Notes: generated from the letters alone by a model not told the origin. A stretch of DNA of 23,099 bases from a virus (IMGVR_UViG_3300037467_000752); one strand, 5' to 3'; shown: positions 5,418 to 16,247, numbered from the stretch's first letter. Made by a program: numbers and translations.

Positions 5418-5482
5418 ATTATGTACGATAACGCTACGCTTTGCGATACGCCGTGCAAGGAATTTTCTTAGGACAAACCCTA
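5418..5482 (-). promoter_or_regulatory. Promoter with box and operator
   Basis: TCGCAA-17-CATAAT, operator TGTACGATAACGCTACG (5422-5438), box TAGGGTTTGTCCTA (5482-5469). Confidence 0.75.
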
Positions 5483-5506
5483 GTAATAAAGCCTTTAGCG
5501 ATTACC

Positions 5507-5916: not shown

Positions 5917-6234
5917 TTAGACTTTCGGCAGTGCTGCCAGCATGTCGGCGTTTTTCTGTTGCACGTGGGCGAGGGCTTCAGCCTGTGACATGACAATAGC
6001 GGGGCTGTCGTCCTTGCCTTCGATTGCGGCATTCCATTTTGCGCACTCTGCCGCCATGAATTGGCGCGTGCCGGTGTAGATCGCGGGGCCGAGAATGGCG
6101 ACCTTTTTGCCGTCCGTCTTCAGGCAGCAATCATGCCAGACGATGACATACAGGTGGGAGGGCACGGCTGCGATAGCGGCCTCAGACTTGGCGGCTGCGG
6201 TTTTGACTTCTGCGATTGCTTGGGCGATGTTCAT
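5917..6234 (-). CDS. Hypothetical protein
   Basis: 105 aa, GAAGGA RBS. Confidence 0.82.
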   Translation of the reverse strand: MNIAQAIAEVKTAAAKSEAAIAAVPSHLYVIVWHDCCLKTDGKKVAILGPAIYTGTRQFMAAECAKWNAAIEGKDDSPAIVMSQAEALAHVQQKNADMLAALPKV

Positions 6235-6268: not shown

Positions 6269-6325
6269 TGTACTGTAATTGGACTTAGGCACTTGTGCAA
6301 GGCTTTTTTATAGGGACAAACCCTT
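6269..6325 (-). promoter_or_regulatory. Promoter with box and operator
   Basis: TTGCAC-17-TACAGT; box AAGGGTTTGTCCCT 11 bp upstream of the -35. Confidence 0.85.
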
Positions 6326-6329
6326 AGAA

Positions 6330-6375
6330 GGAAAGTGTCGCGCAGGGGTGCCGTCCATCCCCGTCGCGTTCGAAT
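6330..6375 (-). ncRNA. Repeated short element, copy 1 (sRNA or micropeptide MDGTPARHFPSKGLSL, 6358-6308)
   Basis: ATTCGAAC-GCGAC-GGGGATGGACGGC, starting 6 nt after TACAAT (6387-6382), with box TAGGGAAAGCACCT (6425-6412). Confidence 0.55.
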
Positions 6376-6409
6376 GCCCGAATTGTAGCGGGCTTTCGTT
6401 CGTTATTGC

Positions 6410-6580
6410 CTAGGTGCTTTCCCTAGCTTTGTTTGCTTTCTGCACGGCCCAGCGAATATATCCTAGCTGCCGTTCACGATTCAAAGCTTCCCATGGCGCA
6501 GGCTTGGGCCATCCCTCGGGATTCTTTGCGTGTAGCTCTCGGCCTGCAGCCTCTTGTTCGGATGTCGGCGGTGTGGTCAT
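6410..6580 (-). CDS. Hypothetical protein, 56 aa
   Basis: MTTPPTSEQEAAGRELHAKNPEGWPKPAPWEALNRERQLGYIRWAVQKANKAREST; ATGA-coupled. Confidence 0.7.
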   Translation of the reverse strand: MTTPPTSEQEAAGRELHAKNPEGWPKPAPWEALNRERQLGYIRWAVQKANKAREST

Positions 6581-6687
6581 TTACTGCCCCAGCGTTTAGC
6601 GTAGACTCTGCCCCGTTGCTCTCCATTCTGCAACGTGTAGGAGTAGGCGTAAAACTTGGCGTAGTGCCTTGCTTTGTGTTTTCTCAT
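6577..6687 (-). CDS. Small basic protein, 36 aa
   Basis: MRKHKARHYAKFYAYSYTLQNGEQRGRVYAKRWGSK; ATGA overlaps at both ends. Confidence 0.6.
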   Translation of the reverse strand: MRKHKARHYAKFYAYSYTLQNGEQRGRVYAKRWGSK

Positions 6688-6716
6688 TTGTTGCCCCTGT
6701 AGTTCGGTGGTGTCAT
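6684..6716 (-). CDS. 10-aa minigene MTPPNYRGNK
   Basis: Its start overlaps the upstream TGA and its stop overlaps the downstream ATG. Confidence 0.4.
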   Translation of the reverse strand: MTPPNYRGNK

Positions 6717-6814
6717 GCCTTGCTTGCCTTAGCTTGAGCCACTAGCGCAGCCTTCACGGCTGCAAACGCGGCAATAGCTGCACGGGTAGGAGTAGCGGGG
6801 CGGGTGATCGGCAT
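6713..6814 (-). CDS. Small Ala-rich protein, 33 aa
   Basis: TAAGGAA RBS; extended -10 TGcTACACT at 6850-6842. Confidence 0.6.
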   Translation of the reverse strand: MPITRPATPTRAAIAAFAAVKAALVAQAKASKA

Positions 6815-6854
6815 TGGTGCGTTCCTTAGTTGCTTGGCTGTAGTGTAGCAGGCT

Positions 6855-7103
6855 TTACAGAGCAGCCCAGCGCGTAGTGTTGCGGTCGTCGGAATCCAGC
6901 CCAAAGCAAACCTTCACGCGATTGCAGATGGTTTCGCTCGTGCCGTCAATCACAATCGTCCCCTTACCGATGTAGCGGCCAAACAGGGCGCGTTGATCGG
7001 CTGCGGACATTTTCCCTTCCCATGTTGCGAGAGGGCTTCCCTTGCGTTCCGTCAGGAAGAGTGCGAGGGCTGCGGCGTAGTCTGTGCGGGTGTTCGTGTT
7101 CAT
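6855..7103 (-). CDS. Hypothetical protein, probably leaderless
   Basis: MNTNTRTDYAAALALFLTERKG...; the ATG is 7 nt after the -10 and has no SD. Confidence 0.8.
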   Translation of the reverse strand: MNTNTRTDYAAALALFLTERKGSPLATWEGKMSAADQRALFGRYIGKGTIVIDGTSETICNRVKVCFGLDSDDRNTTRWAAL

Positions 7104-7107
7104 GGGG

Positions 7108-7155
7108 TGTACTGTAATGTTACGCAACGCAGGATGCAAGCTAGGACAAACCCCT
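7108..7155 (-). promoter_or_regulatory. Promoter with box and operator
   Basis: TTGCAT-17-TACAGT, box AGGGGTTTGTCCTA 2 bp upstream, operator TGTACTGTAATGTTACG. Confidence 0.85.
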
Positions 7156-7297
7156 ATCTTCTATCGGTAAGGTGGTAGGAGTAATAAACGTGCGTCCCGT
7201 TGTGATGTTGCACTTTTTGCACCCGTGGGCTAGATAGTCCGCCTAGCGTGCAAAAGTAGAGATAGGTGATTTGATTGGAAGCGGATGTAGGAAACAT
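7154..7297 (-). CDS. Small phage protein, 47 aa (MFPTSASNQITYLYFCTLGGL...)
   Basis: ACGGAG RBS before the ATG at 7297. Confidence 0.75.
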   Translation of the reverse strand: MFPTSASNQITYLYFCTLGGLSSPRVQKVQHHNGTHVYYSYHLTDRR

Positions 7298-7311
7298 GAT
7301 GTTGCTCCGTG

Positions 7312-7461
7312 TCAGACGTTGAACCCGTGCACCTTCAGGAAGGCGATTTGCTCGGGCGTGCAGAGCGCAAGGGCCATCATGTGGCGTTGCATGTACTTTT
7401 CCAGTTTCGCGCGATTGCTGGGGCTGGGGCACTTGCGAAAGGCGTTAATCAGGCGTTCCAT
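7312..7461 (-). CDS. Small phage protein, 49 aa
   Basis: Hand-translated: MERLINAFRKCPSPSNRAKLEKYMQRHMMALALCTPEQIAFLKVHGFNV; CCGGAG RBS. Confidence 0.8.
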   Translation of the reverse strand: MERLINAFRKCPSPSNRAKLEKYMQRHMMALALCTPEQIAFLKVHGFNV

Positions 7462-7489
7462 TTGGTGGGCTCCGGTGTGTTTCAATGTC

Positions 7490-7547
7490 TGTACTATAAC
7501 CGTACATCAGAATAAAAACAATGGGCCAGCCATAGGGACAAACCCTA
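7490..7547 (-). promoter_or_regulatory. Promoter with box and operator
   Basis: TTGTTT-17-TATAGT, operator TGTACTATAACCGTACA (7490-7506), box 12 bp upstream of the -35. Confidence 0.8.
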
Positions 7548-7576
7548 ACGTTTGCCCTAGCAGCATGGCCCCAGCT

Positions 7577-7762
7577 TCAGCACGGGCGAACGCCTACAGC
7601 CTCCGCTATCCGTCCCGTATGCGTCCGCGCGTCCGTCTGCAGGATGCCCCGCAATTGCACCTCTGCCACACTCGGGGCAGGCGAGGGCGTAAGCGTAGGC
7701 TTACAGGCAGGGTCTAGGGCTTTCGCCTTCGGCTGCGTGGGCTTGATGAGCAGATGACACAT
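7577..7762 (-). CDS. Possible hypothetical protein (uncertain)
   Basis: 61-aa ORF with a weak RBS; the region may be degenerate. Confidence 0.3.
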   Translation of the reverse strand: MCHLLIKPTQPKAKALDPACKPTLTPSPAPSVAEVQLRGILQTDARTHTGRIAEAVGVRPC

Positions 7763-7859
7763 AACGGGCGCGTCCTTCGCTATTCGTGCTTTTCCTCTTC
7801 CTCTCCAACGATGATTTTTGTTCCGATACTACTACGGTGTAGGCTTTTGCCTACGCGCG

Positions 7860-7917
7860 ATTGTCGAGCCAAAAGGTTCCCGGGATATTGGGACAAACCC
7901 TAATAGGGGTAACCCTA
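7860..7917 (-). promoter_or_regulatory. Tandem double box with possible promoter
   Basis: TAGGGTTACCCCTA (7917-7904) and TAGGGTTTGTCCCA (7902-7889); candidate -10 GACAAT (7865-7860). Confidence 0.6.
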
Positions 7918-8106
7918 ATTGACGTGGTTAGCCCAGAGTGCTAGGGCCTGCGTTATCGTTTCGGTTTTCCAGCCCTTGCGGGACAGTTGCAGCCTCAGCA
8001 CGCCTACCCGGGTGATTTGCATATCCCGGGCGATTCGTACTGCATCCCGGAGACATCCAAAGACTTTAGGCGATACCTCCGGGCTTACGTCTGCGGGCTT
8101 TGTCAA
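7915..8106 (-). CDS. Hypothetical protein
   Basis: Start uncertain (TTG with TTGA overlap chosen). The C-terminal part looks protein-like. Confidence 0.65.
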   Translation of the reverse strand: MTKPADVSPEVSPKVFGCLRDAVRIARDMQITRVGVLRLQLSRKGWKTETITQALALWANHVN

Positions 8107-8552
8107 GGCTTCGGCATTGCCGGGAAGTGGAAACTCTCCGGGAAGGGCCACGGGCCAGCATTCGCACCGGCTAGGGCCTTACAGCCTGTATTGCACTCCC
8201 AATGGCGCACAGGGCCACAGGTGCAGCCTGCGGGGCGAGGCAGGCTTGAACGCGCGGCGGCTGCGTCTTCCCGCATAACTTCCGATGCCATTGCGTTGAT
8301 CGCCGCCATATCTTCAGCGAAAAACCCGCTAGGCGGTGCCATAGTCAATGGCGGGCGACTGTCGAGCAGGAAACGGATAAATGCAGCCTCCAGTGCTGCG
8401 GCTCTGTCATCGGCTGCGGGTGTCAAGCCTACGGCCTTGCCGTCGCTGTAGATGAGTGCAAAACAATCATCTATCAGGGCGTTTTCCTCGGGGCTCAGTT
8501 GCCCATTCTCGCGAACGGAAAGGGCTAGGCGTTCATTGTCGGTAAGTCTCAT
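8103..8552 (-). CDS. Hypothetical protein with Cys-rich C-terminal module
   Basis: 149 aa from MRLTDNE; ATGA overlap; contains CTCGPVRHWECNTGC. Confidence 0.8.
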   Translation of the reverse strand: MRLTDNERLALSVRENGQLSPEENALIDDCFALIYSDGKAVGLTPAADDRAAALEAAFIRFLLDSRPPLTMAPPSGFFAEDMAAINAMASEVMREDAAAARSSLPRPAGCTCGPVRHWECNTGCKALAGANAGPWPFPESFHFPAMPKP

Positions 8553-8650
8553 GGGTCCATTCTCCAAAAATAGACGATAAAAGGTGCGGCAAACACTGCC
8601 GCAAGGATGGCGGCAAGCGCCAATTCTTTAAGGTACTGTTTGAGCTTCAT
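8549..8650 (-). CDS. Small membrane protein, 33 aa
   Basis: MKLKQYLKELALAAILAAVFAAPFIVYFWRMDP; ATGA overlaps at both ends. Confidence 0.75.
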   Translation of the reverse strand: MKLKQYLKELALAAILAAVFAAPFIVYFWRMDP

Positions 8651-8850
8651 ACGCTGGCCTGTCTGCGGGTGATGAGTGCTCGGTAATCATACGTGTCCGC
8701 AATGGTGGCGCAAGGGCCACAGGCGGGAAGCCAGCTACGGGCTTCGGCTTCCGTCCAACAAAGGCGGTATGTCCCGTAATCGCACGTGACACGATAGGGG
8801 GCGAAGTAATCGCGGGCGATGCTGTCGAGGGTCTTGATGATTTTGCGCAT
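8647..8850 (-). CDS. Hypothetical protein, 67 aa
   Basis: MRKIIKTLDSIARDYF...; CGGAG RBS. Confidence 0.8.
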   Translation of the reverse strand: MRKIIKTLDSIARDYFAPYRVTCDYGTYRLCWTEAEARSWLPACGPCATIADTYDYRALITRRQASV

Positions 8851-8878
8851 GATCGCTAGCTCCGTTGTGATGCTTTGC

Positions 8879-8922
8879 AGTATGGCCCAGCGTAGCGTAA
8901 TCGTACATAGGGGCAAACCCTA
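8879..8922 (-). promoter_or_regulatory. Promoter with box and operator
   Basis: -10 CATACT, operator TGTACGATTACGCTACG (8907-8891), abutting box TAGGGTTTGCCCCT. Confidence 0.75.
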
Positions 8923-8948
8923 GTTAGTCGGCGTAACGTTTGCAAGCT

Positions 8949-8981
8949 AAAAAGGAAAACCCCTACTTTCGCTAGGGCTTT
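8949..8981 (-). terminator. Probable intrinsic terminator
   Basis: AAAGCCCTAGC-GAAA-GTAGGGGTTTTCCTTTTT on the minus strand. Confidence 0.6.
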
Positions 8982-9000
8982 GCTTTGTGGCCTGCTCTGC

Positions 9001-9156
9001 TCAGTGAGTGGTATACCTCTGGCGCGTGGGCATTTCCTGAGCATGCCTCTGCAGCCTGTCAAGCTCTCGGCGCTGGCCTGCAGTGAGCCTGCGCGGTTGA
9101 CGGCTCGTCTTTGCATTAATGTTGCCCGCGCTGTTGTAATAGGTGCGTTGTTGCAT
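9001..9156 (-). CDS. Small basic protein, 51 aa
   Basis: MQQRTYYNSAGNINAKTSRQPRRLTAGQRRELDRLQRHAQEMPTRQRYTTH; GGAGG RBS. Confidence 0.75.
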   Translation of the reverse strand: MQQRTYYNSAGNINAKTSRQPRRLTAGQRRELDRLQRHAQEMPTRQRYTTH

Positions 9157-9188
9157 GTCGTTCCTCCGGGGCTACGCTTATTCTTGCT

Positions 9189-9374
9189 TTAAGCGGCTGC
9201 AGCGTTGCGCAACATGATCCGGAAAGCCTTGCGGCGTTCTTTGGCACTCCCGGACAGTCCGCTGATGGTCCGGGCATGGCGGGCACCCTTCGGCGCATCC
9301 TTGCCCATGTCGGCATACTTGCCAACGGGGAAAGCGCGGGCGGCTTCACGGGTGGGGAAAAAGACTTGACGCAT
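9189..9374 (-). CDS. Hypothetical protein, 61 aa
   Basis: AAGGAG RBS. Confidence 0.8.
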   Translation of the reverse strand: MRQVFFPTREAARAFPVGKYADMGKDAPKGARHARTISGLSGSAKERRKAFRIMLRNAAAA

Positions 9375-9423
9375 GTTTAAGCTCCTTTGTAGCTATTGTG
9401 TCCTGCCGGACGTTGGAAGAGTC

Positions 9424-9510
9424 TAACGGGAGCCTACGCTAGCCCGGCGGGATGGTCCCCGCTAGTTAGGTAGGAGCTAATGCAAGCTCCCGTTAAGCCC
9501 TTCCGGGCTT
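9424..9510. other. Intergenic multi-stem inverted-repeat element
   Basis: 10-bp closing stem TAACGGGAGC/GCTCCCGTTA with internal stems, next to the hairpin AAGCCC-TTCC-GGGCTT. Confidence 0.6.
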
Positions 9511-9513
9511 GTG

Positions 9514-9678
9514 TTATGGCAGCGTCCAGCGCCCGCGACTGTTATCCCAAACTTCCCCGGTTGCCTCTCTAATTGCGGCTCTCGCGGCTCGCAATGCTTC
9601 ATGTTCTTCGGTGTTTAGACCCGTCCTGTGGTAACGGTTAGTGAGGGCTTCCGCGCAGAGCTTGAGGGCTTGAATCAT
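9514..9678 (-). CDS. Hypothetical protein, 54 aa
   Basis: MIQALKLCAEALTNRYHRTGLNTEEHEALRAARAAIREATGEVWDNSRGRWTLP; promoter directly upstream. Confidence 0.75.
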   Translation of the reverse strand: MIQALKLCAEALTNRYHRTGLNTEEHEALRAARAAIREATGEVWDNSRGRWTLP

Positions 9679-9710
9679 GTTAGTAGCTTCCGGGAGTTAC
9701 GATGGAAAGA

Positions 9711-9754
9711 ATGATAGCAGGGCTAGCGGGCTTGTCTAGTAGGGACAAACCCTT
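9711..9754 (-). promoter_or_regulatory. Promoter with box
   Basis: TAGACA-16-TGcTATCAT; box AAGGGTTTGTCCCT 2 bp upstream. Confidence 0.75.
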
Positions 9755-9755
9755 A

Positions 9756-9959
9756 CTAAAACACAGCTTGAAAGATTGGGCGCGGGCGATTCAGTATGCG
9801 CCAGCCATCAGCCCCGACAGCCTTTTCCAGCTTCGCGGCTGCATCCGGAATATTGCGGGCTTCGTGGATAGGGTGCTTAATCAGGTGCTTACGCTCGGCT
9901 CTGCCGCTTGCGTCAATCCGTGAAAGCGTTGCGGTAATCAGATAGGTGCGCGTCTGCAT
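9756..9959 (-). CDS. Hypothetical protein, 67 aa
   Basis: MQTRTYLITATL...; GAGGT RBS. Confidence 0.75.
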   Translation of the reverse strand: MQTRTYLITATLSRIDASGRAERKHLIKHPIHEARNIPDAAAKLEKAVGADGWRILNRPRPIFQAVF

Positions 9960-9963
9960 TTGC

Positions 9964-10242
9964 TTACCTCTTAGCGGCTTCGTGCGCAGCCTTACGGGCT
10001 GCATCGTATTTCGCCAAAGCCTGAGTAAGCTCTGCCTCTGCAGCGGCCAAAGCCTTAGCTTCAGCCTTCCGCCCGTCAAGCTCAGGTGTCCAGTTGTGAG
10101 GGCGCTCAGCCATCATCCACATTTGAGACAGGGAACCGTTAAACCCATATGCAGCAGCATGGAAAAACAATCCAGCGGCCTCGCGAGCCTGATATGCGTT
10201 TTCCATGTTGTACTCACGGCGGGTTTCAAGAATGCGGCTCAT
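9964..10242 (-). CDS. Hypothetical protein, 92 aa
   Basis: CCGGAG RBS; Ala-rich helical C-terminus. Confidence 0.8.
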   Translation of the reverse strand: MSRILETRREYNMENAYQAREAAGLFFHAAAYGFNGSLSQMWMMAERPHNWTPELDGRKAEAKALAAAEAELTQALAKYDAARKAAHEAAKR

Positions 10243-10274
10243 GGCGTTAGCTCCGGTTTTGTGTTTGCAATGGG

Positions 10275-10332
10275 TGTACTGTAATCGAACCTAACAGGCT
10301 TGTCTAGGATTATTTTCTAGGGGCAAACCCTA
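10275..10332 (-). promoter_or_regulatory. Promoter with box and operator
   Basis: TAGACA-17-TACAGT; box TAGGGTTTGCCCCT 12 bp upstream. Confidence 0.8.
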
Positions 10333-10574
10333 ATACCTGCGGCTTCGAAAGCTTCAGCATACCCTGTCGGGCTTCTCCCCTTCACAGTGGAAAGCTTCGC
10401 GCCCTTTTTGCCTGTGCGATAGTAGCCCACTTCATAGACAAAGATAGGGCCAGAACAAATCCGCCAGCCTTCGCTGTCATAGGTGTCCGCGTCCGTAGCT
10501 TCCCGCAATTCACGGGCAAAGCCACGGGAACCCCAAAGGGTCCGGGCGAATGCTTCAGCCTGTGCGCGGTCCAT
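10317..10574 (-). CDS. Hypothetical protein, 85 aa
   Basis: MDRAQAEAFARTLWG...; TAATG overlap with the upstream stop. Confidence 0.78.
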   Translation of the reverse strand: MDRAQAEAFARTLWGSRGFARELREATDADTYDSEGWRICSGPIFVYEVGYYRTGKKGAKLSTVKGRSPTGYAEAFEAAGIRVCP

Positions 10575-10849
10575 TAGCCATACACCTGAAACATAGCGGC
10601 TTTCCACTCGGCCACGGTGTGTCCGTCCCACACATTCCGGCGAACCCTTGCCCATCGCGGGTAAGGGATATATCCCAAAGCCTGCGAGATATGGGCATTG
10701 CAGCCCCCTGCCTCTAGGCTTTTGGCGTACTCCATAACTACTCGCTCCAGCTTCGCGGCTGTGGGCTTGCCGTGGCGCTTCGTGTCCCATGCCATGCACG
10801 TGCAGCCGTCCATGTCGAGGGCATACTTAGGGGTAATGGTGCGTCCCAT
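10574..10849 (-). CDS. Phage hypothetical protein, 91 aa
   Basis: MGRTITPKYALDMDG...SLEAGGCNAHISQALGYIPYP. Confidence 0.82.
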   Translation of the reverse strand: MGRTITPKYALDMDGCTCMAWDTKRHGKPTAAKLERVVMEYAKSLEAGGCNAHISQALGYIPYPRWARVRRNVWDGHTVAEWKAAMFQVYG

Positions 10850-10850
10850 G

Positions 10851-11084
10851 TTAGATACCCTTGCTGATGACGTGAGCGCAGTAGGCGCGGAGGGCGTCCC
10901 CGATGGTGAAGCCAGCGGGAAGGCAGGCGATGTCCTGCAGGTTATTGCGGAAGCCGCTCCAGCCGTGCACGTTATCCACGTCATATCCCTTCGCGGCGGT
11001 TTCTGCCGGGATGCTGAAGCCCAGCACGATTGCCAAAGCTTCGCGGGCGTTGCGGCTCATTTGTTCGTACAGGTTGCGAGGCAT
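10851..11084 (-). CDS. Hypothetical protein, 77 aa
   Basis: TAAGGA RBS, promoter upstream. Confidence 0.8.
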   Translation of the reverse strand: MPRNLYEQMSRNAREALAIVLGFSIPAETAAKGYDVDNVHGWSGFRNNLQDIACLPAGFTIGDALRAYCAHVISKGI

Positions 11085-11117
11085 GTTGCGTTTCCTTAGT
11101 GCGTTGTCGATGGGCGT

Positions 11118-11161
11118 ATTATGTCCCGTTATCGTACTTAGTCAAACTAGGACAAACCCTA
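11118..11161 (-). promoter_or_regulatory. Promoter with box and operator
   Basis: TTGACT-16-CATAAT; operator at 11122-11138; box 2 bp upstream. The core is 25/28 identical to the promoter at 14781-14808. Confidence 0.85.
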
Positions 11162-11176
11162 CCACTTTGCGAATAT

Positions 11177-11240
11177 GGTTATCCGTTGTCCCGTGTGAAT
11201 TCTTGATTCAACCAATCAGACAACCCCTTGCGGGGTAACC
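11177..11240 (-). other. Candidate structured RNA (three-way junction)
   Basis: Pairings GGUUA/UAACC, GUUGUC/GACAAC, UGAAU/AUUCA and CCC-GCAA-GGG (GNRA loop). Confidence 0.45.
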
Positions 11241-11286
11241 GTGTGCACGTCCGCACGAACGGGCAAGCTGGGGCGTTTCGGTGCCG

Positions 11287-11529
11287 TCATTTTGTGCCCC
11301 TTCGCCCGTTGCTTTGCGTGATGCGCCAGCCGACTAGTTCCCCCTTCGGGTTAACTGCTTTGGCTACGCTCATGCCGTAATTGCCGCATGCCATGCGTAG
11401 GCGCTGAGAATCCGGCACTTCGTCAGGGCTCAGAAAAATCATGCCGTCACGTTCTTTTGCCAGTAGTTCGCGCAACGCGGCGTAGTCGATAATTGCACGC
11501 ATCGGCAGGGGTGTAAATTTAATTTTCAT
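11287..11529 (-). CDS. Hypothetical protein, 80 aa
   Basis: MKIKFTPLP...; ATGA overlap and AAAGGTG RBS. Confidence 0.78.
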   Translation of the reverse strand: MKIKFTPLPMRAIIDYAALRELLAKERDGMIFLSPDEVPDSQRLRMACGNYGMSVAKAVNPKGELVGWRITQSNGRRGTK

Positions 11530-11756
11530 GCGTTCACCTTTTTCCAATCCTGCCCCACGCGGGACAGAATGCGCTGCGCGGCTTCCGTGTTTGACATCGC
11601 CGGGTCTTTCGCCTTCTCTTTTTCCCGCTTCAGCGTGGAATAAATAGACGTGAACCATACGGCATTCGCGGACAGGTCTGCGGCTTGCCGGGGCGTGGCT
11701 CCATTTGCCACGAGCATAAGCGCGTCGCGCATTTCCTGAGATTGTTTTGCTGGCAT
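11526..11756 (-). CDS. Putative HTH DNA-binding protein
   Basis: ALMLVANGATPRQAADLSANAVWFTSIYSTLKR has an HTH-like pattern followed by a basic tail; AAAGGA RBS. Confidence 0.6.
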   Translation of the reverse strand: MPAKQSQEMRDALMLVANGATPRQAADLSANAVWFTSIYSTLKREKEKAKDPAMSNTEAAQRILSRVGQDWKKVNA

Positions 11757-11760
11757 TTGT

Positions 11761-11934
11761 TTAGTTCCTTTTCCAAGCCTCAGGCAAAAACCCGCCGCTA
11801 CTCATCCAATTATCTAGTGCATTAAAATGCTCTGCCGCTTCGTCCGCGTGGGCCTGCCGGATGGCTGGATCAGTGTCGGCTTTCATTTGCTTTAACGTCA
11901 GTCGTAGCAATCTCAATGTTTCGTTGGGGTCCAT
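11761..11934 (-). CDS. Conserved phage protein, 57 aa (MDPN...ALDNWMSSGGFLPEAW)
   Basis: Hand-translated; AAAGGA RBS; extended -10 TGcTAAAAT at 11967-11959. Confidence 0.85.
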   Translation of the reverse strand: MDPNETLRLLRLTLKQMKADTDPAIRQAHADEAAEHFNALDNWMSSGGFLPEAWKRN

Positions 11935-11974
11935 GCGTGTTTCCTTTCGATGTGTACGATTTTAGCACGCGGGT

Positions 11975-12184
11975 TTAGTCGAGCGTGGCCCGTTGTGCGA
12001 GAGCTTGCGATATGTCTCCGTCGCGCTCCATGGCATCAACAAAATCAACCCATGCCACTCGCGTATCGGTAGGATACATTTTGTCGGTTCCGGCATAGTT
12101 CATAATTTTTCGCTTGGGCAAATCCGGATGCGCTTGCCAAAACGCAGTGCGAAGGGCTTTTTGTGTCGTTATGATGTGGGACAT
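11975..12184 (-). CDS. Conserved phage protein, 69 aa
   Basis: ITTQKALRTAFW...DTRVAWVDFVD...RDGDIS..LAQRATL; GAAAGG RBS. Confidence 0.85.
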   Translation of the reverse strand: MSHIITTQKALRTAFWQAHPDLPKRKIMNYAGTDKMYPTDTRVAWVDFVDAMERDGDISQALAQRATLD

Positions 12185-12229
12185 TTTCGGCTTCCTTTCA
12201 GGGAGTTACCCGTGTTGAAATTGTGTACG

Positions 12230-12943
12230 TCAATAGTCGTTGTCGTCCCCGTAATCCTCATCGCAGAATGCATACGGAACGCCAGTGCTAGCCCGTAGGC
12301 CATACGTCAGCGTAAACCGTTGCCCCTCATACTCGACATGCTTGCAATACGGCTGCACTGCCTCAGCAATGGCCCAAAACAGGTCGTAGGCTGTCAATGC
12401 ACTCCCATGGAATCGCCTAGAGGCTTTGCGATAGCCTGTCCGCATACGGGCAAGGGCTGCAGCTAGATAGGGTTTGATAAGCTTTTGGGCTTCAGTCCTG
12501 TCTTCGTCGTCTATCTCGCTAAGGCAGTTCATCCGGCCATGCTCTGCGGCGAAGATAATCTCCCGTAACTCTTCATCGCAATCAATGGGGCGCGTCCTGC
12601 GTGGCGTAGTATCCACGGGTGCCCCGTAGAAGTAATCCCGGAACATGCGCTGAAGGTCGCCCGCAATGTTTTCGTGAATCGTCCATGCGCTGCCTATGTG
12701 ATCGCGGCGCAACTCTCCATTCTGCCCACGGACAAACCAAATCCCGCCGAGGGCCTCTAGCTCGTCGTCAATCGAGCCGATAGCCTCTAGCCCGTTAACG
12801 TGCTCTAGGAGGTCATGCGCGATAACCAAACCCTCTGTAGCCGAGTTCAAGGCCTCGTCTGTAGTGTCAATGCCTTTCACGCCTAAGCCAAGCTCGCCTG
12901 TCATTTCGTCGCGGAAGGCAATCAGGGTTACTGTTTTGTTCAT
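12230..12943 (-). CDS. Hypothetical protein, possible metal-binding (HDLLEH...DELEA); leaderless
   Basis: 237 aa; the ATG is 7 nt after the -10 of TTGACA-17-CACAAT. Confidence 0.88.
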   Translation of the reverse strand: MNKTVTLIAFRDEMTGELGLGVKGIDTTDEALNSATEGLVIAHDLLEHVNGLEAIGSIDDELEALGGIWFVRGQNGELRRDHIGSAWTIHENIAGDLQRMFRDYFYGAPVDTTPRRTRPIDCDEELREIIFAAEHGRMNCLSEIDDEDRTEAQKLIKPYLAAALARMRTGYRKASRRFHGSALTAYDLFWAIAEAVQPYCKHVEYEGQRFTLTYGLRASTGVPYAFCDEDYGDDNDY

Positions 12944-12950
12944 GGGTGTA

Positions 12951-12979
12951 ATTGTGTACGGTTATTGTTCGGCTGTCAA
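12951..12979 (-). promoter_or_regulatory. sigma70 promoter with operator
   Basis: TTGACA-17-CACAAT; operator-like TGTACGGTTATTGTTCG (12955-12971). Confidence 0.85.
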
Positions 12980-13230
12980 GCCCTTTTGATGGGCGTTAGC
13001 TTGCCGTGATATTCCATGCGGCTGCGGGCTTCCCCGTAGAGGCAGACACAGAGGTTGGCGCTAGCAATATAGCGCAGGCTCAGCGGGTCTGTTTTCTTGC
13101 GGGTTTCGCTGGGCAGTTCGTGCCCCCTGCCTGCCGCAATCATTTCAGCACAAATGGCCCTAGCTTCCGCGTCAGCCTTCAGCGTAGCCCGTTCAAGAGC
13201 CGCGCGGGACAGGGCAGCTACGTTCTTCAT
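12976..13230 (-). CDS. Hypothetical protein, 84 aa
   Basis: MKNVAALSRAAL...; ATGA overlap. Confidence 0.75.
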   Translation of the reverse strand: MKNVAALSRAALERATLKADAEARAICAEMIAAGRGHELPSETRKKTDPLSLRYIASANLCVCLYGEARSRMEYHGKLTPIKRA

Positions 13231-13436
13231 TCTGCAGCCTTCAGGACATCGGCAAAGGTCCAAACCTTACCCGTCCCGTTATCGTTCACAGTGTAGCCCG
13301 TGCTACCGTTAGGGTAAGGCATCGGGCCATTCCCCGGAATGGTCATCAGTCCAGTAACGGTAATGCCTTTGCGTGCTAGCTTGCGCACGATAGCGGCTCC
13401 GAAGTGGCGGGCAGAGATTTGCTGGGATGCGTTCAT
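13227..13436 (-). CDS. Phage hypothetical protein, 69 aa
   Basis: CGGAG RBS. Confidence 0.82.
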   Translation of the reverse strand: MNASQQISARHFGAAIVRKLARKGITVTGLMTIPGNGPMPYPNGSTGYTVNDNGTGKVWTFADVLKAAE

Positions 13437-13472
13437 GGCGTTTAACTCCGTGGCTGTTTCGTTTGCAATGAG

Positions 13473-13525
13473 TGTACTGTAACGCTACGCTGAAGGCGTT
13501 GCAAGAGCTTTTTATAAAGCCCCTA
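13473..13525 (-). promoter_or_regulatory. Promoter with operator and degenerate box
   Basis: TTGCAA-17-TACAGT; operator TGTACTGTAACGCTACG. Confidence 0.85.
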
Positions 13526-13744
13526 CGCCTTAGTATGGGAAAAGCCCAGACGGGCCAGCGTAGCCCGTGCGGCTTCGTGCGTGGGCTCGTAGTGGGTGAA
13601 GGCTGCGCCATCGCTCCACGTGAAGCGGATAGACGCATCGCCTTCCGGGTAGGTGGTGAGGGCTGCGCTGTCGGCGCTGCCCCAATAGCGGCCCAGTGAA
13701 AGGGCTGCAGCCTGCGCAGGGGTAAGGGCGGCTTGTGTTTGCAT
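13523..13744 (-). CDS. Hypothetical protein, 73 aa, probably leaderless
   Basis: MQTQAALTPAQAAALSLGRYWG...; the ATG is 7 nt after CATAAT. Confidence 0.75.
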   Translation of the reverse strand: MQTQAALTPAQAAALSLGRYWGSADSAALTTYPEGDASIRFTWSDGAAFTHYEPTHEAARATLARLGFSHTKA

Positions 13745-13751
13745 GTGACGG

Positions 13752-13859
13752 ATTATGTACGATAACAGGACGCATGAAATAGGGATAAACACCTAGACGC
13801 AAGGCTAGGGAAAGCACCTAGAAGAAAAAGCTTGCAAGGCTGTACGGCTATGCTACACT
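13752..13859. promoter_or_regulatory. Divergent promoter pair, each with box and operator
   Basis: Minus: CATAAT 13757-13752, operator 13756-13772, box 13794-13781. Plus: box TAGGGAAAGCACCT 13806-13819, TTGCAA-16-TGcTACACT, operator TGTACGGCTATGCTACA 13841-13857. Confidence 0.8.
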
Positions 13860-13865
13860 GCAGGC

Positions 13866-13915
13866 ATTCGAACTAGCAGGGGATGGACGGCGAGAGTGGG
13901 CGACTGTTTTGTTTT
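13866..13915 (+). ncRNA. Repeated short element, copy 2 (sRNA or micropeptide MDGESGRLF..., 13883-13960)
   Basis: ATTCGAAC-TAGCA-GGGGATGGACGGC, starting 6 nt after the -10; U-rich 3' end. Confidence 0.55.
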
Positions 13916-13925
13916 CCGCATAATG

Positions 13926-13952
13926 AAAAACCCGGGCTATGCCGGGCTTTAG
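13926..13952 (-). terminator. Intrinsic terminator
   Basis: AAAGCCCGG-CATAGC-CCGGGTTTTT on the minus strand, overlapping the stop of 13949..14185. Confidence 0.85.
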
Positions 13953-14185
13953 TTGGCTAAAAATCGCTGGCACGTGGCGGCGTTTGTAGGCAGGTTGATT
14001 CCTTCGCGCTTGCACAGTGCCACGGCTGCGGCTATGGCCGCGTCCATGCTGGCAGCGGCTATCTCGAAAGTATAGCGGGGCAAAGCGTGAAGGTTCACCC
14101 GGTAGCCTGCCGGAATCCCGGCTAAGGCGTGGGCTAGGTTGTCGCTAATGCGGATTGTGTCGCCTTCGCGGATAGCTGCGGTCAT
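13949..14185 (-). CDS. Hypothetical protein, 78 aa
   Basis: ATGA overlap; ends at the terminator. Confidence 0.75.
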   Translation of the reverse strand: MTAAIREGDTIRISDNLAHALAGIPAGYRVNLHALPRYTFEIAAASMDAAIAAAVALCKREGINLPTNAATCQRFLAN

Positions 14186-14403
14186 TGGTAACCCCAGCTT
14201 TCGCGGGCGTAGCGGGGCAAGTCTGCCAGCAATTCCGCCTTACTCGCGTAGAGCGGCCCCACGGCGGCAGGCGTGCCTATTTCGTGGCAGTCATAAACCC
14301 GCCACAGTGGCTTACCTGCCGGGTTACTGTTGCCGTACTTCAGCCCCTTAAACTGCGTGGCATGAAGCGCGATCGGATTGACTCCGTTATGTGGTGTTGT
14401 CAT
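14182..14403 (-). CDS. Phage hypothetical protein, 73 aa
   Basis: VGPLYASKAELLADLPRYA; ATGA overlaps. Confidence 0.8.
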   Translation of the reverse strand: MTTPHNGVNPIALHATQFKGLKYGNSNPAGKPLWRVYDCHEIGTPAAVGPLYASKAELLADLPRYARESWGYQ

Positions 14404-14555
14404 TCTGCATGGGCCTTTGCTTGTTGGTAGTCTGTGCCACGGTAGACTATGCGTTGATACTCGTGCTGAAACCTCTGCTCTAGCGGCTCGCTGCGACGGA
14501 TTACCCGCTTAACTTCGCCCGTGCTGGGGCTCCGAAATTCCCATACTGTCCACAT
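14400..14555 (-). CDS. Hypothetical protein, 51 aa
   Basis: MWTVWEFRSPSTGEVKRVIRRSEPLEQRFQHEYQRIVYRGTDYQQAKAHAE; AGGAG RBS. Confidence 0.75.
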   Translation of the reverse strand: MWTVWEFRSPSTGEVKRVIRRSEPLEQRFQHEYQRIVYRGTDYQQAKAHAE

Positions 14556-14564
14556 TTGCGGCTC

Positions 14565-14753
14565 CTAGTTGGTTTGCTGGGCTGTGCCGTTGCGACGGCG
14601 ATAAAGCTCCGTAGCGGCGTCGTTCAATTGATCGAGGTATTTGCATTCGGCTTCCGGGCTGTGCCCCCGCATAGCGTCAGCGGCTTCCTTAGCGTCACGC
14701 ATAATGTAATGCAGTTCCGCATCCGTCTTATGGCTGTAGCGCGTGGTGAGCAT
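14565..14753 (-). CDS. Phage hypothetical protein, 62 aa
   Basis: CGGAG RBS; L.YI..DA.EAA.A...E.KYLDQ.NDA pattern. Confidence 0.82.
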   Translation of the reverse strand: MLTTRYSHKTDAELHYIMRDAKEAADAMRGHSPEAECKYLDQLNDAATELYRRRNGTAQQTN

Positions 14754-14780
14754 GTTTGCGACTCCGTTGATGAAGGCTCG

Positions 14781-14808
14781 ATTATGTCCCGTTACCGTAC
14801 ATTGTCAA
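14781..14808 (-). promoter_or_regulatory. sigma70 promoter with operator filling the spacer
   Basis: TTGACA-16-CATAAT; operator TGTACGGTAACGGGACA (14801-14785). Confidence 0.85.
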
Positions 14809-14814
14809 GCGGGC

Positions 14815-14845
14815 AAAAATAAACCCCGCGCCAGGTGGGGCTTTC
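14815..14845 (-). terminator. Intrinsic terminator
   Basis: AAAGCCCC-ACCTGGCGC-GGGGTTTATTTTT. Confidence 0.75.
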
Positions 14846-14856
14846 CTGTGGCTGTC

Positions 14857-15063
14857 CTAGTGGCATTCCATAGAGGCACTGCCCCCGCTTACGCGCGTAA
14901 TGCATGTTTGCACCTGTCCGAATGGCCCGCGCACATGTGTGACAGTAGATGATGATTCGCCTACCGTGAAGGTCTGAGACTCTACCTGTAGGGGCTGCGG
15001 CTCACAGGCGCACAGCCCCAAAGACAGGGCCACGAGTAGGGCTGCGGTGTAGGCGCGGCTCAC
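14857..15063 (-). CDS. Small lipoprotein
   Basis: Signal peptide II pattern with lipobox L-C-A-C; beta-rich mature part with two further Cys. Confidence 0.75.
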   Translation of the reverse strand: MSRAYTAALLVALSLGLCACEPQPLQVESQTFTVGESSSTVTHVRGPFGQVQTCITRVSGGSASMECH

Positions 15064-15572
15064 AGGGCCACCCTGAGCGTTTCCGCAATCTTCAGGATGA
15101 GCGCAGCCGTGCGGGGGTCTTCCATCATTTTAAGAGCCTGCGCGTATTCCGGGGCTACGTGCACGGTTACCGGAACAGTAGCACCACTACTAGGCGTAGA
15201 CGTAGGCGCTTCAGGCTGTGGCGTGCCGTTGCCTGCCTTCAAGATATCGGCCTCCATTTGCGCCCGTGCGGCTGCAGCCCGCTTGTTTTCTTGCTGGCCT
15301 GCGATAAGGTTCGGACGTTCTTTGTACGTGCGCGGCAGGCGTTGACGTAGGAAAACCGATTCTAGCGGCTGTCCCGTGGCTTTAGCGTAACGCTTGCGCA
15401 AGGCTTCCGCGTCAGCATCGCTAACCGGCTGTGTCCGCATGTAGTAATCAACGCCAACGGTTTTGGTTCCGGCTGCGCCGTCCCACATTTGCAGTTGTCC
15501 ATCTTTCAAGCTGTCAGCAATGAAGACGGCAGGAGAGCTATCAGCACCAATGCGGGCAAGAATGGAAGGCAT
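15060..15572 (-). CDS. Hypothetical protein, 170 aa
   Basis: AGGAG RBS; first gene of the leftward block. Confidence 0.85.
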   Translation of the reverse strand: MPSILARIGADSSPAVFIADSLKDGQLQMWDGAAGTKTVGVDYYMRTQPVSDADAEALRKRYAKATGQPLESVFLRQRLPRTYKERPNLIAGQQENKRAAAARAQMEADILKAGNGTPQPEAPTSTPSSGATVPVTVHVAPEYAQALKMMEDPRTAALILKIAETLRVAL

Positions 15573-15625
15573 TTTTGGGGCTCCTATGAATTGCCCCTAA
15601 GCTGGGGCGGGTTGAAAGTGTTTGT

Positions 15626-15716
15626 ACTGTAGCGGCTTGTTTTGTTCGTTGCTAGCTGGGGCTCGGCATTGTCCTACGCGGGAGGCTTGCGTACGGTTGA
15701 GCCGTTATGCTAGAAT
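15626..15716. promoter_or_regulatory. Divergent promoters
   Basis: Minus: TAGCAA-17-TACAGT (15654-15626). Plus: TTGCGT-18-TGcTAGAAT (15687-15716). Confidence 0.7.
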
Positions 15717-15721
15717 AGCCG

Positions 15722-15884
15722 ACACGCAAGCCGGAAACGTCCTACAGGGATGGCCGGAAACTACAACCAATAGTATTAGGAGATACGGAACAAAGGCGCT
15801 GGGCTGTCAGTAAAGCCCTACAAAATCCGGCGATGTAAGCCTACGCGAGAGCGGCCACGGTAAACACCCGTGAGCCGCTTTTTT
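15722..15884 (+). ncRNA. Candidate ~160-nt GGA-rich sRNA
   Basis: Bounded by a promoter and a strong terminator; no ORF longer than 7 aa from ATG; five GGA motifs. Confidence 0.55.
15850..15884 (+). terminator. Intrinsic terminator
   Basis: AGCGGCCACGG-TAAACAC-CCGTGAGCCGCT followed by TTTTT. Confidence 0.88.
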
Positions 15885-15922
15885 GTTGCCTACTGACTAC
15901 CGGAAGCCTCGATTCCCTCGTT

Positions 15923-15945
15923 CAATGTCCCAGCATTGCCCCAGC
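15923..15945. repeat. 23-bp direct repeat (partner of 792-814)
   Basis: 22/23 identity. Confidence 0.85.
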
Positions 15946-16008
15946 TACAGCCAGCCAAAACCCGTAGGCGTTCCCGCTTGGGTTCCCTCCCGTGGTTTCG
16001 GCAATGCT

Positions 16009-16063
16009 AAGGGAAAGCCCCTAGAAAATTCCGCTTGCGCACCCCGTATCGTTATTGTACTAT
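16009..16063 (+). promoter_or_regulatory. Promoter with box and operator
   Basis: Box AAGGGAAAGCCCCT 12 bp before TTGCGC-17-TACTAT; operator at 16045-16061. Confidence 0.8.
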
Positions 16064-16069
16064 TGGGGC

Positions 16070-16117
16070 AGTTTCGAATTAACAAGGGGTGGACGGCGAC
16101 CCTGCCCGTCTACTTTT
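16070..16117 (+). ncRNA. Repeated short element, copy 3 (sRNA or micropeptide MDGDPARLLF..., 16089-16154)
   Basis: TTCGAAT-TAACA-AGGGGTGGACGGC; hairpin GTGGACGG/CCGTCTAC followed by TTTT. Confidence 0.6.
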
Positions 16118-16247
16118 CAACCTTCCCCCATTTCCCCGGTTTGTTGCAGCCTAGCAACGCTCCAGCCTTAGCTGTTGCGTGGAACCAACGCGACTGTTGG
16201 TTTCACACCACATTTGTAACGGAGGGGGTGCCCCCGGCTCCATGATC

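Follow-up and report, generated by a model that had tools for sequence, protein, structure and literature searches.

A promoter-coupled candidate RNA motif repeated three times in a soil phage and carried by unrelated freshwater phages

The three loci of the soil phage

The element described here recurs three times in a stretch of 23,099 nucleotides of viral DNA (IMGVR_UViG_3300037467_000752; the whole stretch is referred to below as the window). The window belongs to an uncultured phage of ~85 kb from soil and rhizosphere metagenomes, the layout of which comprises portal and terminase genes, a rightward accessory block with a serine recombinase as its last gene, a leftward block of small genes of ~17 kb in which all three copies reside, and a rightward replication block encoding DNA ligase, RNA ligase, a Toprim primase-helicase and PolA. 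Comparative sequence analysis indicates that the repeats are genuine, that they do not encode peptides, and that they represent a short candidate RNA motif at the predicted transcript starts of their own promoters. In all, ~36 kb of the phage was examined, that is, the window together with the near-identical metagenome contigs L236 and L238 (6 kb to the left and 7 kb to the right); it contains exactly three copies, and the two flanks have none. Close relatives of the phage were found neither among GenBank phages nor in IMG/VR, its DNA ligase has no relatives in IMG/VR, and exact-protein look-ups of its RNA ligase and HNH protein returned no record. ARAGORN detected neither tRNA nor tmRNA in the window.

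An initial annotation, made from the sequence, had described three intergenic loci that align without gaps, and both their positions and the ungapped alignment hold (Table 1). The exact core, GGGRTGGACGGC, is present three times where ~0.006 occurrences would be expected by chance (our own arithmetic for both strands of 23 kb, with 11 bases fixed and one R), the 16-nt upstream box is found three times at up to three mismatches against an expectation of 0.16, and repeat finding recovers a likeness of 44-58 nt among the copies (families D17 and I1). Scored with a covariance model of 117 members of the motif family, copies 1, 2 and 3 reach 40.1, 49.4 and 44.0 bits, respectively, and the next match in the ~36 kb has 13 bits. 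Copy 1 points left and copies 2 and 3 point right; that the latter two run opposite to the gene block, as had been claimed, is borne out by the JGI gene calls on the near-identical contig L238, and the gene calls on the near-identical contigs place them in intergenic gaps of the minus-strand block, pointing against it. Each copy does stand behind its own -10, although a start ~6 nt after it had been proposed and the gap between -10 and TTCGAA is 7, 7 and 9 nt. The upstream box is a small hairpin, CTAGG-N7-CCTAG, which at copy 1 lies ~10 nt (one helical turn) closer to the -10 than at copies 2 and 3. Copy 1 is followed by an ordinary promoter cassette that drives a gene starting at 6234. Copy 2 faces a GC-rich hairpin which, with its weak plus-strand U-tract, could form the end of a copy 2 RNA of ~85 nt. 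The hairpin with U4 previously noted at copy 3 exists (-15.4 kcal/mol) but is no better than those of shuffled sequences (z -1.2), and to judge from the relatives it is terminator-like yet locus-specific, and not a family feature.

Table 1. Predicted features of the three loci and other hairpin boxes of the window
Feature	Position	Strand	Remarks
Copy 1 upstream hairpin box TAGGGAAAGCACCTAG (CTAGG-N7-CCTAG)	6410..6425	-	~22 nt before -10
Copy 1 -10, TACAAT	6382..6387	-	No convincing -35; start predicted near A6375; sequence read directly
Copy 1 motif	6338..6375	-	UUCGAA 6374-6369; core GGGGAUGGACGGC 6362-6350 (exact core 6350-6361)
Copy 1 mini-helix	C6368-G6362 and G6367-C6363	-	Loop CGA
Next ordinary promoter cassette after copy 1	6272..6326	-	Box 6326-6311; TTGCAC 6300-6295; TACAGT 6277-6272
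Copy 2 upstream hairpin box CTAGGGAAAGCACCTAG	13805..13821	+	
Copy 2 promoter	13832..13859	+	TTGCAA 13832-13837; 16-nt spacer; TACACT 13854-13859; start predicted near A13866
Copy 2 motif	13866..13903	+	UUCGAA 13867-13872; core GGGGAUGGACGGC 13879-13891 (exact core 13880-13891)
Copy 2 mini-helix	C13873-G13879 and U13874-A13878	+	Loop AGC
GC-rich hairpin CCCGGG-CTAT-GCCGGG	13931..13946		Terminates convergent minus-strand gene 13949-14185
Copy 3 upstream box AAGGGAAAGCCCCTAG	16009..16024	+	
Copy 3 promoter	16035..16063	+	TTGCGC 16035-16040; 17-nt spacer; TACTAT 16058-16063
Copy 3 motif	16072..16109	+	UUCGAA 16073-16078; core GGGGUGGACGGC 16086-16097 (exact core)
Copy 3 mini-helix	U16079-A16085 and U16080-A16084	+	Loop AAC
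Copy 3 hairpin	16085..16117	+	Core paired with CCGUCUACUU; UUUU at 16114-16117
Other hairpin boxes	2019-2042, 2772-2795, 5462-5485, 6305-6328, 7531-7549, 7882-7905, 9740-9755, 10312-10335, 11145-11163, 13780-13795, others		From repeat families

Distribution and promoter coupling

An exact scan with the pattern TTCGAAY-N5-RGGGRTGGACGGC matched 27 loci in IMG/VR and at least 120 loci in metagenomes, and 146 distinct instances are present in all the DNA that was fetched. In 596 Gb of bacterial and archaeal genomes the same pattern gave eight matches, the number expected by chance, all of them in coding-looking sequence that lacks a promoter. Since 27 plus at least 120 loci on the phage side stand against genome matches of chance type only, the motif is phage-specific. 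None of 50,697 GenBank phage records contains it, and searches of GenBank phage DNA for near and distant likeness, using the region, a relative's locus or the motif alone, produced no relevant match. The initial annotation knew of no named family that fits, which holds for Rfam 15: the window has no match at the gathering threshold, and the loci of seven relatives (53 kb) have none at E values up to 1.

Most carriers are large phages of fresh water that possess rIIA and rIIB, with sizes of 356-383 kb in some cases, and no protein shared between the window and the relatives' loci is detectable in the regions compared. To guard against ascertainment bias, loci were also fetched without the pattern, by way of a neighbouring GP88-family gene, and then searched with a profile; the motif, diverged forms included, was present in 50 of these 80 loci. 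Of the 146 instances, 141 have a promoter with a score of 9 or more out of 12, in most cases a near-perfect TTGACA-17-TATAAT. The -10 ends 6-12 nt before TCGAA in 118 of them, and in 23 a structured leader of 25-51 nt separates the -10 from the motif. Two near-complete jumbo genomes have a single copy behind a near-perfect TTGACA-17-TATAAT. Some contigs have two copies, which lie in tandem at a distance of 1.9-3.3 kb or diverge at one of 15.5 kb, and the two copies of one genome (G004) diverge like copy 1 and copies 2 and 3 of the window. A subset of the freshwater phages has an AGGG-AAAG-CCCT hairpin box before the -35, the same as at the three window copies, and because this box is common to the soil phage and some freshwater phages, box, promoter and motif look like one cassette of the promoter-early stem-loop (PeSL) type.

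A covarying mini-helix between two invariant strands

The motif is composed of UUCGAA, a mini-hairpin and then GGGRUGGACG within a G-rich block. Its invariant parts are [U/G]UCGAA and GGG-R-UGGAC-G, and the 5-7 nt between them form the mini-helix. The first pair, which joins the last base after UCGAA to the first G of the G-run, is C-G in 103 sequences, G-C in 13 and U-A in one. The second is A-U in 75, U-A in 20 and G-C in 8, with G-C in copy 1 and U-A in copies 2 and 3 of the window (the first pair of copy 3 is also U-A). Where the hairpin is longer a third pair is GC in 13 sequences and AU in 6, and in ~25 phages the helix reaches 3-4 bp with loops of 5-8 nt (CAG/CUG, GAG/CUC, CGG/CCG, GGA/UCC, GGG/CCC). 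The covariation score of 0.374 compares with 0.083 in column shuffles, none of 500 of which attains it, and with 0.087 or less for slid partners; the first alignment gives the same result. The loop itself is not conserved (UAG, AGG, AGC, CGA, AAC or loops of 5-8 nt), and the forms with long leaders have extra hairpins with compensatory changes of their own, for example CGG-GUAGA-CCG as against CAG-GUAGA-CUG.

As far as the alignments allow us to judge, the mini-helix is the only supported structure. RNAalifold, applied to 118 sequences from the start site to +60, returned zero consensus pairs, and a mutual-information scan revealed no second covarying helix, the weak association of R23 with Y37 (97% pairable, mutual information 0.11) being possibly phylogenetic. 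Beyond ~+35 only G+C richness is conserved. Pairing of the core with the downstream 30 nt is no better than in shuffles (mean z +0.18), which rules out that the core serves as the 5' arm of a locus-specific terminator in an RAT-like antitermination device. A terminator-like hairpin with a U-tract occurs within ~140 nt in 30 of 118 relatives. The 30-nt block has 50% G, 68% GC and a G-skew of +0.46, and its flanks have 43-47% GC. TTCGAA, a restriction site of the BstBI type, shows no depletion elsewhere.

The motif always lies on the non-template, that is the transcript-sense, strand behind the promoter. Self-complementary insertions are neutral for a hairpin and would part the half-sites of a duplex, and the constraint must therefore act on a single strand. 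This points to a single-stranded nucleic acid, for which RNA would be the simplest reading because of the constant strand behind the promoter; the displaced DNA strand of an R-loop would be the other possible carrier.

Genomic surroundings of the motif

The motif is followed within 260 nt by two or more DnaA boxes in 83 of 143 instances; these usually form two facing sets from ~46 nt past the motif onwards. The complete IMG/VR record of 383 kb (G001) has one copy, situated at the point at which gene orientation diverges, and six of the seven perfect TTATCCACA boxes of this genome fall within the 130 bp directly 3' of it (86760-86889; L356 8761-8890). Next to this site is an island of 15 kb that is richer in G+C (0.46-0.48, compared with ~0.41 elsewhere). 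In a near-complete genome of 356 kb (G002), no DnaA cluster accompanies the single copy, and two small genes come after it. In many relatives (e.g., L014 13620-13680, L040, L056, L082) an extended -10 (TGTATAAT) stands between two DnaA boxes (CTGTGGATAAAAGGTGTATAATCTGTGGATAAC), an arrangement that looks like a DnaA-controlled second promoter just 3' of the motif. One freshwater metatranscriptome contig maps to a relative; it covers only L011:3077-3291, which is 3' of the DnaA boxes, and leaves the motif uncovered. The soil phage has a DnaA-box array of its own ~480-620 nt to the left of the window (L236 8880-9035), made up of TTATCCACA, two TGTGGATAA and near-boxes. This array lies between the recombinase gene and the next gene and, unlike those of the freshwater relatives, has no motif and no consensus promoter ahead of it. 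The motif is separable from DnaA boxes, can be triplicated, and is present in a soil phage unrelated to the freshwater carriers.

Other contexts include a perfect AT-rich hairpin (GGTTAGTTAG-CA-CTAACTAACC), a second promoter cassette within 25-40 nt, as at copy 1, and a place directly behind tRNA genes. In many loci (L001, L003, L011 2975-2996, L026, L088) the motif is followed by an AT-rich hairpin that is nearly perfect, (C)TAAGTTAGTTGGCACTAACTAAC, and that is duplicated in L069, L149 and L057. In L171 (2813-2967), L210 (2519-2593) and L211 (3169-3244) the promoter of the motif starts directly after tRNA-Met or tRNA-Arg genes, so the cassette also occurs at the ends of tRNA clusters. An analysis of the flanking strands by crude open reading frame (ORF) content proved noisy.

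Three further observations concern the small-gene block of the window. A direct repeat of ~23 bp, CAATGCCCCAGCATTGCCCCAGC, at 792-825 and 15923-15945 brackets the whole leftward block beside the serine recombinase gene, and copy 3 is located just beyond its right-hand member. Around 8410-8470 two contigs of one JGI sample meet (Ga0395907_0000271 ends and Ga0395907_0001338 begins); the assembly of the phage thus breaks within this block, possibly at the repeated promoter cassettes or at a strain-variable spot. Finally, a stretch of ~160 nt without an ORF (15690-15884) has its own promoter, TTGCGT-18-TGCTAGAAT, and is closed by a strong terminator at 15850-15884. Its predicted transcript contains CAGGGAUGGCCGGAAAC, which is like the motif core but lacks UUCGAA and is missed by the family covariance model, and it is treated here as a different candidate small RNA.

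Comparison with known systems

The PeSL cassettes of T4-type phages consist of a small stem-loop just 5' of a sigma70-type promoter (PMC2839356, PMC4122927), and they are repeated among small ORFs in plastic regions. The boxes of the three copies fit this description, standing 10 nt before the -35 at copies 2 and 3, as do those of other promoters in the window: a hairpin box of the TAGGG-TTTGT-CCCTA type, recognised in the repeat families, precedes many promoters of the leftward block, either abutting the -35 or 10 nt away. These boxes fit PeSL cassettes (PMC4122927) even though the phage is not T4-like. A PeSL cassette ends in a Shine-Dalgarno sequence and a start codon, whereas copies 2 and 3 have no downstream gene on the same strand; moreover, PeSLs as described have no conserved transcribed block, so that UUCGAA-hairpin-GGGRUGGAC is an extra element. 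On sequence criteria, then, the promoter and box match PeSL cassettes, and the transcribed motif matches no described family.

Like nut sites and the boxA-boxC leaders of rrn operons, the motif is promoter-proximal, is present in few copies per genome, heads divergent early transcripts and combines conserved single-stranded blocks with a variable hairpin. It differs in that its sequence is unrelated, its hairpin is not conserved in sequence and can shrink to 2 bp, and two of the three copies have no cargo; neither a boxA (CGCUCUUUA / UGCUCUUUAACA) nor a boxB with a conserved loop is present, and by eye UUCGAAC...GGGRUGGAC contains no boxA. With the sibling small RNAs Qrr1-5 and OmrA/B it shares separately promoted copies, one conserved segment and one type of upstream site; those RNAs, however, have defined terminators and Hfq-dependent mRNA targets, and neither a conserved terminator nor a target was found here. 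T4 oriF and oriG, ColE1 RNA II and the mitochondrial LSP-CSBII likewise have a promoter followed by a conserved G-rich block, often beside initiator sites, yet they need no invariant non-G sequence or covarying hairpin, and DnaA boxes are absent at the three window copies. By analogy, the motif would work most like sibling small RNAs or nut-type leaders, yet the features that define each are missing or only partly present.

A number of other identities were examined and rejected. The core resembles the T-box sequence (AGGGUGGNACCGCG) at ~11 of 13 positions by eye with one indel, but there is no Rfam match, no Stem I and no conserved terminator. By eye, the stable RNAs rnaC and rnaD of T4 are unrelated, the spacing of TGGAC-N-CTGC is inconsistent with a sigma54 promoter, a -10-like pause element is contradicted by the loss of CATAGT in covarying variants, the RfaH ops site agrees at 7 of 12 positions, a degenerate DnaA box at 5 of 8, a leaderless AUG peptide fails because ATG is absent here and in several relatives, and a CsrA site would have a single GGA only. 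A CRISPR repeat or anti-repeat is discounted since the 596 Gb of genomes contain no array.

Possible functions of the motif

We tentatively favour, with confidence well short of even, the reading that the window carries three sibling small-RNA genes, the 5' motif of which would bind a conserved factor in trans. Each locus would be a short non-coding RNA gene with its own sigma70-type promoter and the common upstream hairpin box. Only the first ~30 nt would be functional, namely the single-stranded UUCGAA, a small hairpin of variable size and the single-stranded GGGRUGGACG, and the sequence after the motif would not matter. The hairpin may serve to bring the two invariant strands side by side and so create the binding site. 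Its ligand would most likely be a host or phage protein, and less probably a very conserved RNA; as the window and the relatives' loci share no protein, the common partner is more likely to be a host factor or a physical property. The predicted RNA would then serve as a decoy or sponge, being produced early and abundantly.

In support of such a trans-acting RNA are the coupling to promoters (141 of 146), the phage-specific spread and the covariation on a single strand, together with the unconstrained downstream sequence and heterogeneous contexts. The loci are orphans in their placement, copies 2 and 3 facing genes and having terminator-like ends close by, and copy number resembles dosage, one copy with a near-perfect promoter being found in some phages and three with weaker promoters in this one. 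The non-coding RNA with a fixed core that the initial annotation envisaged is thereby upheld in part: the core is conserved far beyond this phage, on a promoter-coupled strand and with a covarying mini-helix, but a defined species of 45-60 nt or a conserved terminator finds no support across the family (30 of 118 relatives, no better than shuffles; zero consensus pairs). Both of its suggested modes of action, base pairing and protein sponging, would still fit. When the three seeds were scanned for RNA duplexes across the window, they matched only the antisense strands of the copies themselves; shuffled G-rich seeds scored -32 to -38 kcal/mol, and the scan was accordingly without power. Four points weigh against a decoy RNA. 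The scarcity of terminator-like hairpins with U-tracts means that a defined small RNA is not a family trait; a free-floating decoy does not explain the DnaA boxes downstream in 83 of 143 relatives; copy 1 and several relatives lead directly into a further promoter and gene, an arrangement suggestive of action in cis; and no target emerged from the scan of seeds against the window, itself without power.

The DnaA boxes and promoters downstream recommend an alternative, which we consider unlikely, in which the nascent motif acts in cis, loading a factor onto its own RNA polymerase, or itself modifying it, in the manner of nut, put or rrn boxA/boxC, so that the polymerase passes terminators, head-on traffic and such protein roadblocks as DnaA arrays or promoter-bound polymerase. 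A promoter lies close to the motif in 141 of 146 instances, the single-stranded conserved blocks and dispensable hairpin resemble boxA/boxB, and an obstacle often comes next, be it a DnaA-box array, a second promoter (copy 1; L018, L039, L049) or a terminator. The single copy of the 383-kb genome, at the divergence point, heads a leftward gene array of ~85 kb, and the leftward copy 1 and rightward copies 2 and 3, like the divergent copies of G004, recall nutL and nutR. Against this, copies 2 and 3 have no sensible cargo, being antisense to genes and followed by a strong hairpin within 65 nt or by their own hairpin and U4, at most two small genes lie downstream in G002, only one promoter of the 383-kb genome carries the motif, and by our own comparison the sequence is unlike the boxA consensus. 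We know of no N-like or Q-like protein here. It is equally doubtful whether the G-rich start of the RNA gives rise to an R-loop, a lasting RNA-DNA hybrid whose displaced strand might fold into a G-quadruplex, and which would either melt the DNA or serve as primer for the leading strand, as happens at T4 oriF/oriG, ColE1 RNA II and LSP-CSBII. The base composition of the block (50% G, G-skew +0.46) suits such a hybrid, as do the DnaA-box arrays directly downstream in 58% of relatives, the position of the only DnaA-box cluster of G001 beside the motif, the orphan promoters, the single-copy locus in jumbo genomes, the outward orientation of copies here and in G004, which would allow bidirectional priming, and the PolA-family polymerase and Toprim primase-helicase that the window phage encodes. 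Folding into a G-quadruplex has been described for a DNA oligonucleotide that has GTGGGGGTGGACGG in common with the family consensus (PMC6256979). A hybrid, however, leaves the invariant UUCGAA, the invariant UGGAC and the covarying hairpin unexplained; none of the three window copies has DnaA boxes and the phage's own DnaA array has no motif; by our reading the fourth G-tract is missing in copy 1 and several A-variants; and the GC skew of G001 follows gene orientation and marks no origin.

The remaining proposals are far less probable. A 5' stabiliser, in which base pairing between the G-rich block and the 16S rRNA 3' end (GGGGGUGG with CCACCUCC) would hold a 30S subunit that protects the transcript, would have precedents in the STAB-SD elements and in the polypurine stabiliser of phage SP82 in Bacillus. 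The motif is purine-rich and 5'-terminal in 118 of 146 instances, and pairing by eye gives the G-variant eight contiguous pairs with the anti-Shine-Dalgarno sequence. We nevertheless regard this as very unlikely: the frequent A-variant (41 of 146, copies 1 and 2 included) breaks the pairing, a stabiliser would be expected on many transcripts and not once per 383-kb genome, and UUCGAA and the hairpin go unexplained. An operator in duplex DNA, bound by a repressor or activator from +1 to +30, would account for the fixed position relative to the promoter and for the palindrome ATGTTCGAACAT of many relatives, but self-complementary insertions of 4-9 bp between the conserved halves would wreck such a site, the motif is 25-51 nt from the -10 in 23 instances, and all three window copies lack a palindrome beyond TTCGAA, all of which makes this improbable in the extreme. 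Least credible of all is the micropeptide MDGx[PS][AG]Rx[FL] of the initial annotation, which the 146 instances refute. It could appeal to the R of GGGRTGG, always A or G, by which the triplet is always ATG or GTG. Only Met-Asp is constant, however: codon 3 encodes G, V or T, codon 4 is nearly free with more than eight residue types, the frames from RTG run from 6 to more than 35 codons (10 or fewer in 44 of 146), the start is GTG in 105 of 146, and the column entropies show no third-position excess (e.g., codon 5: 1.80/0.89/0.98). The sole Shine-Dalgarno-like run abuts the start codon, and no spaced one exists. The peptide lengths given for the three copies (16, 25 and 21 residues) are correct as figures and carry no meaning.

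Beyond the three small-RNA genes favoured above, a broader and somewhat less likely possibility takes the motif as a portable, host-independent RNA tag at the transcript start of unrelated lake and soil phages, used for factor capture or for conversion into a primer. The captured factor would in that case be universally conserved in bacteria, such as RNA polymerase, a Nus factor or a widespread defence sensor, and the primer option would apply next to DnaA sites.

Significance

That ~25 nt should be near-invariant across phages of different habitats, with no detectable common protein in these regions, is rare, and implies that infected cells provide an important partner common to these phages. 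Being absent from Rfam and from GenBank phage records, the motif is invisible to current annotation. Its association with PeSL-type promoter cassettes would mean that these can carry a functional RNA payload, and if the tag reading is true the motif would be the first of a new class of RNA elements in phages, equipped with a mobile promoter cassette of its own. It also offers a concrete, short and easily synthesised handle for biochemical assays, which could reveal new ways in which phages manipulate host transcription, replication initiation or RNA-binding factors.

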